DNA of 64,000 nucleotides from a bacterium. GTDB taxonomy: Bacteria > UBA8248. Each line of letters opens with the position of its first letter. Position 1 is the first letter of the stretch. Below are positions 38,441-44,593 of this stretch, one piece after another. The notes beneath the pieces were generated by a model. It was not told the origin of the DNA and searched no databases. It saw only the letters and a program-made list of their open reading frames with translations. Location: contig OZ241875.1 in NCBI GenBank assembly GCA_965203325.1, positions 4,192,001 through 4,256,000 on the forward strand, written 5' to 3'. Position numbers and translations under genes: made by a program.

Positions 38441-38850
38441 AGAGATATTCGAGAGAAGACGGGCGTCCTGCACACTGCGGACCTGCCCGGAGCGAAGGAC
38501 ATGCTCACGACGAAACGCCGGGCGGACCTCACCGCCCGTAGCGCAGCCTCGCCATCGCGGCCACGGCCGCCGAGTGCCCCCCCTCGTAGAGATCCCCCCA
38601 GGTACGCCGCTATCCCGGCGTCGATCTCTGGGTTGCCCGAACGCTCGAATCCCCTAAGCGTCGGGTCGGATGGTCTTGCCCCCGTCGTTATGCCGAGAAG
38701 CCAACCTTCCGGGTCGGTGGTCGTGTCCATTCCCTGGGGCCGCCCGAGCGCCTCCTCGATTGCCAAGTATGGACGACGACGGGGAATTTCCACAAAAAAA
38801 AGCCGTTTCGCAAGCGAATACCGGCGAAACGGCGGGTTTCTGGAGTCCGA

Positions 38851-39041
38851 TAATTGACGTTATCAGAAAATTTAACACCTCTCACGGCCATGTCAAGCAC
38901 GAATCCGGGGTCCCCGGAGGGGTTTCGGGTGCCGTTTTGCGTCTTTTTTCGCTCATGTTTCGCTCATTTGCAGCCCGAATGCCCCCCGAAACGGGTTTTT
39001 CGGCGGAAAACGGGGCTTCTGGGGGCCGATAACGTCAATTA
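38851..39041. promoter_or_regulatory. Candidate invertible promoter segment (14-bp inverted repeats, promoter on minus strand)
   Basis: TAATTGACGTTATC 38851-38864 and GATAACGTCAATTA 39028-39041; minus-strand TTGACA(38896-38891)-16 nt-TAAATT(38874-38869) with TGn extension. Confidence 0.7.
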
Positions 39042-39158
39042 GCGGACACCAGCCCGGGTTCGAGGCGGCGCATACCGCAGGAATCCGCCTCTCGCGGAAA
39101 GACTCACGACCGGTTGCGTCAGCTTGAACCCGAAATCTCTGAACAGGGGGCATTCCAA

Positions 39159-42158
39159 ATGAAGAACATTGCACGGATCTCGATGCTGCCGGCGGCGGCG
39201 TTCTGCAGCGCGGTCCGGCGGCGTGAAGTGCGCCCGGCCGGGGCGCGCGAGCCGGCTCCCTCGACATCGGCGGGCTCCAGACGGCCTGACGCCCGCACCG
39301 GGCGCGGCCGCGCCCGCCGCCTCTCCCTCCTCCTCCCCGTCCTCGCGCTGCTGCTCGGCGCGCTCGGCCTGTTCGCCCCCGCGCCGGCGGAGGCGCAACG
39401 CGCCGGCCCGACTGTGACGGCAACCGCCGGGGACGCGAGCGTCAGGGTGAACTGGACCTTCACCGACACCGATCCCGCAGACTGGGAAATCGAGTACGGC
39501 GTGCATCCCAGCGGCTCGACCTCCACGGTGACGGAGTTTTCTTCGGGCGCCAGGTCGAGGACGATTACGGGCCTGACGAACGCTACGACCTACCGGTTTC
39601 GCGTGCGGGGAATAAACGCAAGACCCACCCAGTGGTCGGGCTGGGTCACGGCGACCCCGCAGGCCGCGACCCCCGGCGACCCCACGGGCGTGACGGTGAC
39701 GCCGGGGAATGCGCAGCTGTCGGTGTCGTGGACGGCGCCGTCGGGGACGGTGACGGGCTACGACGTGCACTACACGTCCTCGTCGACGGTTGCGGCGGGC
39801 GCGACGGTGCAGACCGTCTCGGCCGCGGCCGGCTGGCTGGCGCACCCCACCCGCACCGCCACCGACACCTCGACCTCGCAGACGATCTCGAGCCTGATGA
39901 ACGGCACGCCCTACCGGGTGCGGGTGCGGGCGAAGAACACCGCCGGCGACAGCGCCTGGGTGGTGAAGAGCGGCACGCCCAGCGCGCCCTCCGCCACGGC
40001 CGTCTGGTCGGCGACGCTTACGCCGCAGACGGTTACCGGTGGCGTTGGCTGTCTCACCAAGTCCCAATGCGATTCGCGACTCACCGACAACAGCTTCACA
40101 GTCGGCGGGACGGACTATCACTTTACTTTTCTCGTGGACTTCTCCGCCACGGGCCTTCAAGCGGCCTTCAATGCGGTTCCGAACGCTACGCTCCGGGCGC
40201 TCAAGTTTTGCGTGGGCACGACGGGGTATGAGATTGGCGCAGGGATTAGTCAGGCACTCTCCGCGTCCGCCATCGGCTGGTCCGCCGGCACCCCGGTCTC
40301 GCTGAGCATCGACACGTCCTGCACGGCGCAGATGACGCAATCCACGAACGCGAACCTGAGCGGTCTGACGGTGGGCAGCAGCACGAGTTCGGGCGGCCAG
40401 TACACGGATTTCAGCATCGGCACCTTCGGGGCGACGACGACGACCTACACGGCGTCGGTGGCGAACGACCAGACGCATGTGAAGCTGACGCCGACGGTGG
40501 CGGACACCGGCAAGGCGACGGTCGGGGTGCGCAAGGGCCAGGGCAGTTTCACGGCGGTGACGAGCGGCTCGGCGAGTTCGGCGATCGCGCTCGACGTGGG
40601 CGCGAACACGCTCACGGTGCGGGTGACGGCCGAGGACACGACGACGACCAAGGACTACACGGTCACCGTCACGCGGCGGCAGGCGCAGCAGACCCTGTCC
40701 ACGAACGCGGACCTGAGCGGCCTGACGGCGGGCAGCGCCACGAGTTCGACCGGCACGTTCACGAATTTCAGCATCGGCACCTTCGCGGCGACGACGACGA
40801 GCTACTCAGCGTCGGTGGCGAACGACCGGACGCATGTGAAGCTGACGCCGACGGTGGCGGACACCGGCAAGGCGACGGTGACGGTGGCCGGCAACGCGGT
40901 GAACAGCGGCTCGGCCAGCGGCCCCATCGCGCTTAGCGTGGGGGCCAACGCGATCACGGTGCGGGTGACGGCCGAGGACACGACGACGACCAAGGACTAC
41001 ACCGTCACCGTCACGCGGCAGGCGCTCCCGGCGAAGGTGACGACCGCCGTCTCCGGCACCATGACGGTCGGAGACGGAGGGAGCTGGAAGGGCTTTCGAG
41101 CCACACCAGTTGTTGGAGCGCTCTCTGACGCCGACTTCACCTACGGCGGGGTCGATTACAGGATCCTCGGTCTCCGGCTCGGAAACTCCGGCTATCTCGC
41201 CTTGCACCTGAACAAGGCCCTGGACCGCAATTGGGGCCTTGTGCTGAACGTTGGCGACAGCCGGTTCCGTATCGCGGATGCCGTTCTGTCCACGGGCCCG
41301 GGCTACGAGGGTGTAATAGCGGGCTGGTTCTATTCCAACCAGGGCGAAACGCCCCCGAGCTGGACCGTCGGCGACACCGTGCCGGTGAGCCTGGGGACGC
41401 TCACTTCCTCCACGGTGAAGCTCTCCGTCAGCCCGAACCCGGTGAACGAGGGCGCGTCGGCGAGCGTGGAGGCGTGCCTGTCGGCGGTGCCGCAGGGCAC
41501 CGTGCGCATTCCGGTGACGCTGAGCCACGGGACCTCGGAGGACGGCGACTGGGGGGTGTCGCTGACGGGCGACACGGACGGCCGCCTGCCGATCAGCACG
41601 GCGTACACCATCGCCATCAGCGGCTGGCTCCAGCGCGGCTGCGGCGTCGTCAACATCCCGACGCACCCGGACAGCGACGCCGACGACGAGACCTTCACGG
41701 TGGCGCTGGACACGGCCAGCCTGCCGCCGGGGGTGCGGGCGGGCAGCCCGGCCTCGGTGGTGGTGAGGATCAAGGACCTCACCGACTTGCCGGAGGTGAC
41801 GCTGCGGGCGGTGCGCCGCACGGTGGCCGAGGGTTCGCCGGTGGAGTTGCAGGTGGCCCTGACGGAGCCGCTGGCGACCGACGTGGCGATCCCGCTCAGG
41901 GTGAGGTGGGTCACGTCGGAGACGGCCGACCACGGGTTCGTCAGGAGCATCACGATCGCCGCCGGCGCGACGAGCGGGTCGGGCACGATCAGGACCTACG
42001 AGGACGACGACACGGACGACGAGCGCTTCCAGGTAGCGGTGATCCAGCCGGACCTGCCGGAGGGCGTGGCGCCGGGCTCACCGTCCACGGTCGGGATCAC
42101 GATCGTCGACGCGGCGAACGCCCGGCTGCGGGCGCTTGACTTGAATTCCGGCAATTAA
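39159..42158 (+). CDS. Secreted surface protein: 2x fibronectin III, 2x cadherin-like beta-sandwich, Calx-beta-like domains
   Basis: Extended signal peptide ending APAEA; FN3 motifs (GLTNATTYRFRVR, LMNGTPYRVRVRA); TNANLSGL...VRVTAED...YTVTVTR repeats; DSDADDETFTV. Confidence 0.85.
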   Translation: MKNIARISMLPAAAFCSAVRRREVRPAGAREPAPSTSAGSRRPDARTGRGRARRLSLLLPVLALLLGALGLFAPAPAEAQRAGPTVTATAGDASVRVNWTFTDTDPADWEIEYGVHPSGSTSTVTEFSSGARSRTITGLTNATTYRFRVRGINARPTQWSGWVTATPQAATPGDPTGVTVTPGNAQLSVSWTAPSGTVTGYDVHYTSSSTVAAGATVQTVSAAAGWLAHPTRTATDTSTSQTISSLMNGTPYRVRVRAKNTAGDSAWVVKSGTPSAPSATAVWSATLTPQTVTGGVGCLTKSQCDSRLTDNSFTVGGTDYHFTFLVDFSATGLQAAFNAVPNATLRALKFCVGTTGYEIGAGISQALSASAIGWSAGTPVSLSIDTSCTAQMTQSTNANLSGLTVGSSTSSGGQYTDFSIGTFGATTTTYTASVANDQTHVKLTPTVADTGKATVGVRKGQGSFTAVTSGSASSAIALDVGANTLTVRVTAEDTTTTKDYTVTVTRRQAQQTLSTNADLSGLTAGSATSSTGTFTNFSIGTFAATTTSYSASVANDRTHVKLTPTVADTGKATVTVAGNAVNSGSASGPIALSVGANAITVRVTAEDTTTTKDYTVTVTRQALPAKVTTAVSGTMTVGDGGSWKGFRATPVVGALSDADFTYGGVDYRILGLRLGNSGYLALHLNKALDRNWGLVLNVGDSRFRIADAVLSTGPGYEGVIAGWFYSNQGETPPSWTVGDTVPVSLGTLTSSTVKLSVSPNPVNEGASASVEACLSAVPQGTVRIPVTLSHGTSEDGDWGVSLTGDTDGRLPISTAYTIAISGWLQRGCGVVNIPTHPDSDADDETFTVALDTASLPPGVRAGSPASVVVRIKDLTDLPEVTLRAVRRTVAEGSPVELQVALTEPLATDVAIPLRVRWVTSETADHGFVRSITIAAGATSGSGTIRTYEDDDTDDERFQVAVIQPDLPEGVAPGSPSTVGITIVDAANARLRALDLNSGN
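40341..41020 (+). repeat. Tandem internal duplication (two cadherin-like domains, ~340 bp each)
   Basis: tccacgaacgcg(a/g)acctgagcgg at 40341 and 40698, with near-identical downstream blocks. Confidence 0.85.
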
Positions 42159-42172
42159 GGGGGGCATGTCCG

Positions 42173-44593
42173 ATGAAGAAGATTGTACGGATTGCGGTGC
42201 TGCTGTCGGCGGCGTTGTGCATGGCGACGGGCGCCGGGGCCGGGCAGGTGAGCCTGGACGGTGCGTTCGACCCGGACCGCGCGACCTACAGCGCGACGGT
42301 GGCCCACGACGTGACCGAGGTCACGGTGAACGCGAGCCCCGAGAACCCGAATGCGCGGGTGACGGTGAACGGCGGCGACCCCGCGACGCCGGTGGCGCTG
42401 GCCGTGGGGAAGAATACCATCGTGGTGGTGGTGACGGCGCCGGACGCGCGCTACACGCGCACCTACACGGTGACGGTGACGCGCGAGGCGGCGCCGGAGC
42501 CGGCGCGGCAGCAGGTGGCGCAGCAGCAGGCGTCGGAGCCGCTGACGGCGGCGTTCGAGGGAGCGCCGGAAGAGCATGACGGCAAGGCGGCGTTGGCGCT
42601 GGAGGTGCGTTTCAGCGAGGCGCTGGGCGAGACCGCGAGCGCTCCGGCCGCGGCCTCTTTCGCCGTGACGGGCGGCAGGGTCAAGCAGGTGCGGAAGGTG
42701 GCGTCCGGCCTGTGGCGGGTGCGCGTCGCGCCGAAGTCGTGGAAGGACGTGACGGTGACGCTGGCGGGCGGGCGCGCCTGCGGCGCGGCGGGCGCGGTGT
42801 GCACGGCCGACGGGAGGGCGCTCACGAACACGTCGAGTATGACCATAGGCGGCCCGGTGCGCATCCGGGTCGCGGACGCGCGGGGGAAGGAAGGCAAGGA
42901 CGCATCGCTGGACTTCGCGGTGACGCTGAGCCGCGCGGCGTCGGGGCCGGTCTCGGTGGACTACGCGACCGAGGACGGCACGGCGGCGGCGGGGGCGGAC
43001 TACACGGCCACGTCGGGCACCCTGACCTTCGCGGTGGGCGAGACGGCGAAGACGGTCTCGGTGCCGCTGCTCGACGACGCCATCGACGAGGGCAAGGAGA
43101 CGTTCAAGCTCAAGCTGTCGAACCCCCGGGGGGCGTATCTGCGGGGGATTCACCGCCAGGCGAAGGGGGTGATCCGCAACGACGACCCGCTGCAAAGGAT
43201 GTGGCTCGCGCGGTTCGGGCGCACGGCGGCGGGCCACGTCGCCGGGGCGATTGACGGACGCCTTTCGGGCGGCGCCGCCGCGGGCGTCGTGCTGGGCGGC
43301 CACAGCCTCTCAGGCAAGGCGGAGCGCGAGGCCATCGAGTCGCGCCTCGCCGAGGCCCTGCTCAAGGAGAGGGAGGCCCGGCTCGGGCGCGGCGAGGAGG
43401 CGCAGGCATCCCCGGTGCGCGAGGTCGCGATGTCCGATCTCCTGCTCGCGAGTTCGTTTCACATGGCCTCGGCGGAGAAGGTGGACGCCGGCTCGCGCTG
43501 GTCGCTGTGGGGCCGGGGCGCGCGCTCCTCGTTCGAGGGCGCCGAGGGCGATCTCTCGCTGGATGGCGACGTGACGACGGCGACCGTGGGCTTCGACTAC
43601 GAGCGCGCGCGCTGGCTGGTGGGCGTGGCGCTCTCGCGAAGCGCGGGCGACGGCTCGTACAAGGCGGGCGGCGCGTGCGATACGGGCTGCGCGGGCGAGG
43701 TGGAGAGCACGCTTACGGGTGTCTACCCCTACGCGCGCTACCGCGTGAGCGGGACGTTCTCGCTCTGGGGCGCTGTGGGCCACGGGCAGGGGGAGATGAC
43801 GCTCACGCCCGGGGGGTCGTCCCCGGTGGAGGCCGACGTGGCGATGGGCATGGCGGCGGCGGGGGCGCGCGGGGTCGTTCTGCCCGCGCGCGCGGCGGGC
43901 GGGTTCGAGCTCGCGCTCCGCGCGGACGTCCTGGTGACGAACACGCGCTCGGACGCCGCGGCGGGCCTTGCGGAGACCGACGCGGAGACGAGCCGCGTGC
44001 GCCTCGTGCTGGAGGGTTCGCGCTCGCTCAGGTTCGGCGATGCGGTGCTGACGCCCTCGCTGGAGATAGGGTTCCGGAACGATTCGGGCGACGCGGAGAC
44101 GGGCGGCGGGGTGGAGGCCGGCGGTTCGGTCCGCTGGACCTCGGGGGCCCTGACGACGGAGGTGCGCGCGCGCGGCCTGCTCTCCCACGGCGAGAGCGGT
44201 TATGAGGAATGGGGCGTGAGCGCCTCGGTGGCGTACGCTCCGGGCTCCGGGGGACGGGGCCTCACGCTTCGGGCGGGCTCCTCGTGGGGCGCCTCCGCCG
44301 GCGGTGCGGAGCGGCTCTGGTCGCAGGCGGCGGGCCTGGCGCCTGCCGGTGCGTTCGAGCCGGGCGGTGCGGGCTTCGAGGCCGAGGCGGCCTGGGGCCT
44401 GGACGCCCCCCGGGGGCTGCTGACGCCCTATACGGGCGTGGCGGTCTCGGGGAACGCGGAGACCTGGCGCGCGGGCGCGCGCTGGAAGCCCGGGGCGGCC
44501 ACGGAGGTGAGCCTCGAGGCGAGCCTCACCGAACAGGCCGGCGGCGGGAGACCCGAAGGCGGCCTCCTGCTCAGAGGCTCGAAGCGGTGGTAG
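42173..44593 (+). CDS. Autotransporter-type outer-membrane protein with partial cadherin-like and Calx-beta domains
   Basis: Signal peptide; VDYATEDGTAAAGADY..DDAIDEGKETF (Calx-beta); WLARFGRT linker; barrel-like C-terminus ending in Trp. Confidence 0.82.
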   Translation: MKKIVRIAVLLSAALCMATGAGAGQVSLDGAFDPDRATYSATVAHDVTEVTVNASPENPNARVTVNGGDPATPVALAVGKNTIVVVVTAPDARYTRTYTVTVTREAAPEPARQQVAQQQASEPLTAAFEGAPEEHDGKAALALEVRFSEALGETASAPAAASFAVTGGRVKQVRKVASGLWRVRVAPKSWKDVTVTLAGGRACGAAGAVCTADGRALTNTSSMTIGGPVRIRVADARGKEGKDASLDFAVTLSRAASGPVSVDYATEDGTAAAGADYTATSGTLTFAVGETAKTVSVPLLDDAIDEGKETFKLKLSNPRGAYLRGIHRQAKGVIRNDDPLQRMWLARFGRTAAGHVAGAIDGRLSGGAAAGVVLGGHSLSGKAEREAIESRLAEALLKEREARLGRGEEAQASPVREVAMSDLLLASSFHMASAEKVDAGSRWSLWGRGARSSFEGAEGDLSLDGDVTTATVGFDYERARWLVGVALSRSAGDGSYKAGGACDTGCAGEVESTLTGVYPYARYRVSGTFSLWGAVGHGQGEMTLTPGGSSPVEADVAMGMAAAGARGVVLPARAAGGFELALRADVLVTNTRSDAAAGLAETDAETSRVRLVLEGSRSLRFGDAVLTPSLEIGFRNDSGDAETGGGVEAGGSVRWTSGALTTEVRARGLLSHGESGYEEWGVSASVAYAPGSGGRGLTLRAGSSWGASAGGAERLWSQAAGLAPAGAFEPGGAGFEAEAAWGLDAPRGLLTPYTGVAVSGNAETWRAGARWKPGAATEVSLEASLTEQAGGGRPEGGLLLRGSKRW

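Follow-up and report, generated by a model that had tools for sequence, protein, structure and literature searches.

One PF12733 domain divided between two adjacent genes: a candidate naturally split autotransporter adhesin in a UBA8248 bacterium

Can a single beta-sandwich domain be divided between two neighbouring genes, so that a passenger without a membrane anchor is held by an autotransporter? The question is raised by two adjacent genes in a 64,000-nucleotide (nt) stretch of DNA (the window; positions 4,192,001 to 4,256,000 of contig OZ241875.1, assembly GCA_965203325.1) from a UBA8248 bacterium. A first-pass annotation of this stretch had proposed that one cadherin-like domain begins at the end of the upstream gene (gene 1) and continues in the downstream gene (gene 2), whose product carries a barrel. 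Our analysis upholds the division of the domain, one part in a secreted protein that has no barrel and the other in an autotransporter, on the strength of Pfam matches, a domain profile, a matrix for the first strand of the domain (strand A) and structural matches of the barrel. We give about an even chance that the locus encodes a naturally split autotransporter adhesin, with passenger and anchor rejoined by strand complementation in trans.

The larger part of the domain lies at the start of gene 2. The product opens with MKKIVRIAVLLSAALCMATGAGA, followed by QVSLDGAFDPDRATYSATV and on to YTVTVTR, and its residues 30-105 match PF12733 (Pfam, E = 2.5e-19), with VSLDGAF standing directly after the signal peptide and the strand-A motif absent. 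Aligned to a 108-column profile of 20 complete domains of the family, gene 2 enters only at column 14 and becomes truly similar at about column 21. The motif missing here stands at the C-terminus of gene 1, which ends in ITIVDAANARLRALDLNSGN and then TAA. Gene 1 also holds two complete PF12733 domains (E 2.6e-30), opening with NANLSGLTV and NADLSGLTA, and PF12733 proteins outside the family show the form [DN]-A-x-L-x-x-L-x-[LV]-S-x-G-x ahead of L-x-P-x-F. On a strand-A matrix built from 38 distinct 13-mers of 17 such outside proteins, the tail NARLRALDLNSGN scores 11.8, which places it second among the C-termini of 3803 open reading frames (ORFs) and is equalled or bettered by 0.021% of random 21-mers; the two best ORF ends are those of this locus and of its paralogue B. 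High scores were also obtained for the tails of L002 (9.7) and L093 (9.6), each reached by 0.05% of random windows, and of paralogue C (7.5; 0.16%), with L090 lower (2.0; 1.5%). An earlier and narrower matrix, for which long-loop domains of the family itself were used, gave a weaker result (rank 25 of 3803; 0.44% of random windows), and a HMMER search with the 40-residue tail alone, too short a sequence, gave no meaningful match. A chance likeness of the tail to strand A was considered and rejected, as fused forms of the protein, which have no gene 2 start region, keep the strand; its conservation is therefore not owed to the start signals of gene 2. By these comparisons the gene 1 tail is strand A of the split PF12733 domain, and the cut falls precisely at the boundary between strands A and A'.

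The junction is compact. Fourteen nt separate the stop codon of gene 1 from the ATG of gene 2 at 42173, with AAGGGGGG just 5' of the ATG, and no promoter-like or terminator-like site was found on the plus strand between the two genes. That gene 2 has its own ribosome-binding site and signal peptide, as the first-pass annotation had it, agrees with the Shine-Dalgarno run of six G and with the leader as read by eye. A version of this run shorter by 1 nt is present in part of the contig depth in all four metagenome runs, and the run varies from G5 to G7 across loci; this variation could reflect paralogues or strains, or a tuning of translation. Contigs from other sponge metagenome runs (X3 record 20; X4 records 28 and 29) span the junction, which is thus no assembly artefact.

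Gene 2 has the makings of a classical, type Va autotransporter: a signal peptide (by eye), a helical linker and, after it, a C-terminal barrel. In the AlphaFold2 (AF2) model, whose mean predicted local distance difference test score (pLDDT) is 69, the N-terminal domain reaches about 80-89, helices occupy residues 340-365 and 382-403, and the strands of the barrel run from 441 to 804. Foldseek matched the barrel to those of Hbp (3aeh; template modelling score (TM) 0.60, E 1.2e-7), NalP (1uyn; 0.57), BrkA (3qq2; 0.62) and EspP (3slj; 0.50), and Pfam gave no match to the autotransporter barrel PF03797 at E <= 0.01. A sequence search of the PDB with the N-terminal domain of gene 2 returned 0 matches. 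Gene 1, for its part, begins with a leader plus signal peptide, which extend to about 39395, and further encodes two FN3 domains, the two complete PF12733 domains and Calx-like domains, and the domain scan found no barrel in it. Its two PF12733 domains form a tandem repeat in the DNA (40325-41025; 84% identity over 364 nt). The N-terminus of gene 1 (39159-39395), like that of the fused paralogues D-G, is putatively composite: the short leader of the family, MKNIARISMLPAAAFCSA, is followed by about 45 charged or proline-rich residues and then by a second, classical signal peptide (RRLSLLLPVLALLLGALGLFAPAPAEA). Paralogue H is without the first part and begins MSAQRPAG.

The first-pass annotation had suggested looking for the same split in homologous loci, and it was found at every junction that we compared. 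The genome is a single 4.39-Mb contig in which nine loci share the C-terminal part of gene 2. Three of these are split (A, the locus in the window, and B and C, with 98.0% and 95.6% identity to A over the 661-nt junction), five are each fused into one ORF (D to H) and one is truncated (I). The junction also occurs five times in a genome labelled Alphaproteobacteria, once in a genome labelled Binatia and, at 55-64% identity, on three metagenome contigs. At all 12 junctions (three in this genome, six in the two others and three on contigs) the cut is present, the upstream ORF ends in N-x-x-L-x-x-L-x-[LM] plus 3-8 residues, and a stop codon intervenes, so that passenger and barrel are never one polypeptide there; the distance from stop to ATG, read from the printed junctions, is 11-17 nt. 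The upstream proteins themselves differ, some having a Calx-like C-terminal domain and others a second domain type (ending Y-x-I-x-F-Q-x-N), and each of them has its own signal peptide.

Both halves of the domain have relatives that point the same way. A search with residues 1-125 of gene 2 returned 62 proteins, and in 38 of the 39 examined a leader (whole, or cut by the gene call) leads directly into a strand-less body, with varied middle parts and barrels behind it. In a quick tree of 86 PF12733 bodies, made from few columns, all strand-less bodies (28 rows: 26 labelled, L090 and P0046) form a single clade with a Shimodaira-Hasegawa-like approximate likelihood ratio (SH-aLRT) support of 98. 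From the other side, a profile of the second tail-bearing domain type found 50 matches among 1.84 billion representatives; 35 of them reach the end of the profile, and 27 of these 35 stop within 6 residues after it. Among the remaining eight, P0078 is a gene call that crosses the junction out of frame, and the other seven continue through a linker of 14-110 amino acids rich in Gly, Ser and Gln into the same strand-less body, of the form V-x-[FL]-D-x-x-F...Y-x-A-x-V. Two of the relatives, P0094 (3117 amino acids; 48% identity to residues 26-806 of gene 2) and P0099 (2764 amino acids; 50% identity to residues 25-806), are giant proteins that unite gene 1 and gene 2 in one piece. P0080 and P0104 are likewise fused, with linkers of 70-110 amino acids from strand to body, and neither of them ends in an autotransporter barrel; the pair of strand and body is thus also used outside type V secretion.

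Gene 1 itself is maintained as coding sequence. Among close pairs of gene 1 copies every indel is a multiple of 3 (A1-B1 5/5, A1-C1 7/7, A1-L003 5/5, B1-L003 3/3), and the signal peptides are kept. Taken with the conserved junction, the comparisons indicate a split that is old, conserved and maintained.

How, then, might the two products work together? We infer that strand complementation in trans is the best-supported mechanism. The ancestor would have been a giant single-ORF autotransporter containing a PF12733 beta-sandwich with its strand A on a flexible loop. In one lineage a stop codon, ribosome-binding site and signal peptide would have taken the place of that loop, leaving a two-gene operon under a phase-variable promoter. 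The product of gene 1 would be a Sec-exported, barrel-less passenger ending in strand A, and that of gene 2 a short autotransporter that, once mature, begins with the strand-less body. By joining that body through beta-strand complementation, the tail would re-form the domain and tether the passenger non-covalently to a barrel-anchored stalk.

Docking of this kind had been anticipated in the first-pass annotation, and here the outcome is mixed. Co-folding of gene 2 residues 24-112 with the last 110 amino acids of gene 1, with our own alignments as input, scored 0.32 (runs 0.45, 0.32 and 0.31), with a best control of 0.00, a partner pLDDT of at least 52 and at least 90% contact agreement between runs. 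Of 157 solved complexes 116 pass the same mark, as do 2 of the 215 mismatched pairs; those that pass with scores no higher than 0.60 comprise only 18 of the 157 complexes and both of the mismatches. The co-fold thus lends docking weak support. On the same side, AF2 made residues 10-18 of a naturally fused segment of P0099 (strand, 14-residue linker and body) a beta-strand in a block of pLDDT 81, next to a disordered linker below 50. VIA-align matched this segment to generic Ig-like sandwiches only (best 3v9f_A, Z 8.5, root-mean-square deviation 2.7, 103 aligned), a result uninformative on strand A.

Several observations count against docking. AF2 folds the N-terminal domain of gene 2 confidently without the strand (pLDDT about 80-89), so that the body may not need it, and the co-fold may have passed through the likeness of the two pieces to intact domains. 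Strand A is probably an edge strand in Ig-like folds, as opposed to the core strand of pilins. Of the five AF2 models of the fused P0099 segment, only the best was confident (mean pLDDT 80.6, 68.7, 58.4, 56.4 and 45.9). The tails of L085 (score 0.3; 2.8% of random windows as high), L091 (-1.2; 4.7%) and L088 (-2.0; 6%) are not significant on the strand-A matrix, and the L001-type tail fails it through a 1-residue deletion. The ratio of nonsynonymous to synonymous substitution rates (dN/dS) between copies of gene 1 is 0.76-1.6, compared with 0.26-0.61 over codons 1-340 of gene 2; the passengers of fused paralogues give 0.76-0.95, which makes the high ratio a property of the family's passengers and not specific to the split. 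In this assembly the promoter segment of each of the three split loci faces away from the genes. Finally, a Pfam scan of the 12 neighbouring ORFs found no secretion-related genes (one match each to HTH_17, a zinc ribbon and Exo_endo_phos), and no route across the outer membrane is evident among them for the barrel-less product of gene 1.

The alternative that survives best is a conserved operon without docking, in which the gene 1 product acts alone, in the periplasm or otherwise released, and the tail is a relic or caps the domain before it. We think this unlikely, although it deserves to be taken seriously: it would accommodate the body that is modelled confidently on its own, the weakness of the co-fold, the want of an evident export route for a tethered passenger and the tails that do no better than 3-6% of random windows. 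It does not readily accommodate a tail motif kept at all 12 junctions and in the 27 relatives that stop at the tail, nor the retention of the motif in fused forms, where no downstream start codon constrains the DNA. Moreover, a body lacking exactly that strand always follows the tail, whether in cis or in the next gene.

The DNA around gene 1 invites a further explanation, namely that a junction module makes gene 1 a recombination cassette for antigenic or architectural variation, a role that would also be compatible with docking. The tail, stop, ribosome-binding site and first 50 or so nt of the leader are homologous, as DNA, to the sequence at the 5' end of the long genes of the family. The 5' region of gene 1 itself (39107-39255) is included in this homology, its "tail" being non-coding there. 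This remnant reads ..DRLRQLEPEISEQGAFQ, without a stop; 39146-39255 is 74% identical to 42160-42275 over 116 nt, and as a peptide the remnant is not strand-like (matrix score -9.7; 42% of random windows equal or better). With copies of the module on both sides (39107-39255 and 42118-42275), gene 1 is flanked by direct repeats. At L093 (33-1818), two passenger-only genes (83% identity over 893-921 nt) stand in tandem 5' of one short autotransporter, in the order gene 0, gene 1, anchor; gene 0 is missing about 9 codons, and the tail no longer lies in its reading frame. Such arrays would arise by duplication, and the loss of an upstream gene would leave its tail as an untranslated leader. The direct repeats, the tandem array, the nine paralogous loci with mosaic passengers and the phase-variable promoters all speak for a cassette. 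On the other side, no excision joint between module copies was found among the joints listed from four metagenome runs, and a silent cassette would have no need to keep the signal peptide and the reading frame intact in each copy. We regard the cassette as improbable in place of docking.

It is still less probable that recoding (frameshifting, read-through of the stop or ribosome hopping) yields one polypeptide. At three of the nine genome junctions (L084, L085 and L088) the two ORFs are in frame with a single TAG between them, as read-through would have it. At the other six the offset is +1 or +2, all of TAA, TAG and TGA are used as stops across the junctions, and a fused product would hold a hydrophobic signal peptide within the passenger; no shared slippery site was seen by eye in the aligned junctions, where no motif search was made. 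An alternative genetic code was ruled out by the varied stops and frame offsets.

We can hardly credit a recent breakage, pseudogene or assembly artefact, which the existence of fused homologues (P0094 and P0099, and the paralogues E, F and G, which have a complete domain in the corresponding position) was expected to signal and which a gene 1 dN/dS near 1 might suggest, given a junction shared by three genomes, three metagenome contigs and the contigs of other runs, a single clade of strand-less bodies, in-frame indels between close copies, an insert that provides a functional start region and a signal peptide, and fused passengers with the same dN/dS; neither a break confined to a single lineage nor decaying pieces are seen at the locus.

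The features of the locus are collected in Table 1. The putative promoter segment upstream of gene 1 consists of 163 nt enclosed by 25-nt inverted-repeat arms, and the promoter-like site within it lies on the minus strand (38896 to 38869), directed away from gene 1 in this assembly. An invertible segment of this kind stands 5' of every long gene of the family (loci A-G); it has the orientation seen in the window at five of the seven loci, including all three split ones, and is inverted at F and G. At locus I (about 2,532,858-2,534,405) the family copy is truncated to its last 516 or so residues, and the open frame 5' of it reads like the end of what we take to be a transposase.

Table 1. Features of the split locus (positions are those of the window)
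Feature	Positions	Strand	Basis
Putative invertible promoter segment 5' of gene 1	38840-39052		Inverted-repeat arms 38840-38864 and 39028-39052
Non-coding junction remnant 5' of gene 1	39107-39158	+	DNA homology to the gene 1/gene 2 tail, stop and ribosome-binding region
Gene 1, passenger-only protein	39159-42158	+	Putative start ATG 39159, TAA 42156-42158
C-terminal tail NARLRALDLNSGN, strand A of the split PF12733 domain	42117-42155	+	Matrix test, junction and relative comparisons
TAA, G6 Shine-Dalgarno run (42159-42164) and spacer	42156-42172	+	Sequence
Gene 2, predicted short classical autotransporter, 806 amino acids	42173-44593	+	ORF, Pfam, AF2, Foldseek
Gene 2 signal peptide	42173-42241	+	Homologous to family leader MKNIARISMLLAAAFC; read by eye, no predictor run
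PF12733 body without strand A, residues 26-104	42248-42484	+	Pfam, profile alignment, AF2 pLDDT about 80-89, tree
Calx-beta domain, residues 245-320	42905-43132	+	Pfam; Foldseek 3ead_B TM 0.87
Predicted alpha-helical linker, residues 340-403	43190-43381	+	AF2 model
Predicted C-terminal beta-barrel translocator, end ...GSKRW	43493-44590	+	AF2 and Foldseek

Matches to the family were found in 2 of 61 genomes searched, this one included; among the 22 further members of its genus a single one gave a match, and a weak one. Members of the family occur in metagenome-assembled genomes assigned to several phyla, under such labels as Alphaproteobacteria, Gammaproteobacteria, Binatia and Poriferihabitaceae, and several of the runs containing this stretch are recorded as sponge metagenomes. 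The patchiness of the family suggests horizontal spread of host-interaction genes.

Where would a split adhesin of this kind stand among known secretion systems? With type Va autotransporters such as Hbp, NalP, BrkA and EspP, gene 2 shares the signal peptide, short passenger, helical linker and C-terminal barrel fold. In type Va, by definition, a single chain comprises both passenger and barrel, whereas here most of the passenger (about 1000 amino acids) is on a separate polypeptide without a barrel. Two-partner secretion (TPS; type Vb, TpsA/TpsB) likewise has passenger and barrel as separate products of genes side by side. Unlike those systems, gene 1 has no TPS domain (Pfam, E <= 0.01) and gene 2 is without POTRA or Omp85 features, its barrel matching type Va translocators, and we know of no TPS system with a split beta-sandwich link. 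We consider, tentatively and as rather less than an even prospect, that the locus represents a new subclass of type V secretion, in which a barrel-less passenger gene stands apart from a short autotransporter and the two products are joined by trans-complementation of a split beta-sandwich. On this reading the separate passenger might even be led through the barrel behind the passenger part of the anchor, as its non-covalent continuation.

The analogy with chaperone-usher pili drawn in the first-pass annotation is a loose one. In donor-strand complementation, as in the strand exchange of type V pili, an incomplete Ig-like fold is completed by a strand of another chain, and to this extent the likeness stands. 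A chaperone-usher subunit lacks its C-terminal G strand, which is completed by an N-terminal extension; here it is the N-terminal A strand that is missing and the C-terminus of the partner that would donate it, in a one-to-one tether and not a polymer. No chaperone or usher was found in the Pfam scan of the 12 ORFs neighbouring the locus in the window. Ag43, AIDA-I and pertactin, whose cleaved passengers remain non-covalently attached, resemble the proposed arrangement in their end state, a two-chain adhesin on the surface, but there the chains result from cleavage of one chain after export, whereas the present ones are translated separately. The engineered SpyTag/SpyCatcher pair and strand-swapped classical cadherins likewise receive the terminal strand of a beta-sandwich in trans; the present case differs in being natural, presumably non-covalent, and bacterial. 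No description of such a split was found in the titles and abstract openings of the literature searched.

The further idea that passengers and anchors are swappable holds in part. Different passengers do stand 5' of near-identical anchors, but no other gene of this genome ends in such a tail beyond the three split loci, one 42-residue ORF excepted, so the search for similar endings elsewhere came back empty and passengers are evidently supplied in cis.

An autotransporter family whose passenger is cut off inside a domain poses a testable question: how does a protein without a barrel reach the cell surface, and what holds it there? Should the strand dock, the two genes would provide a natural non-covalent tag-and-catcher pair for surface display. 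If split adhesins are indeed rejoined in this way, symbionts could mix passengers and anchors, and the near-identical tails and bodies at three loci would let passengers share anchors under independent promoter switches.

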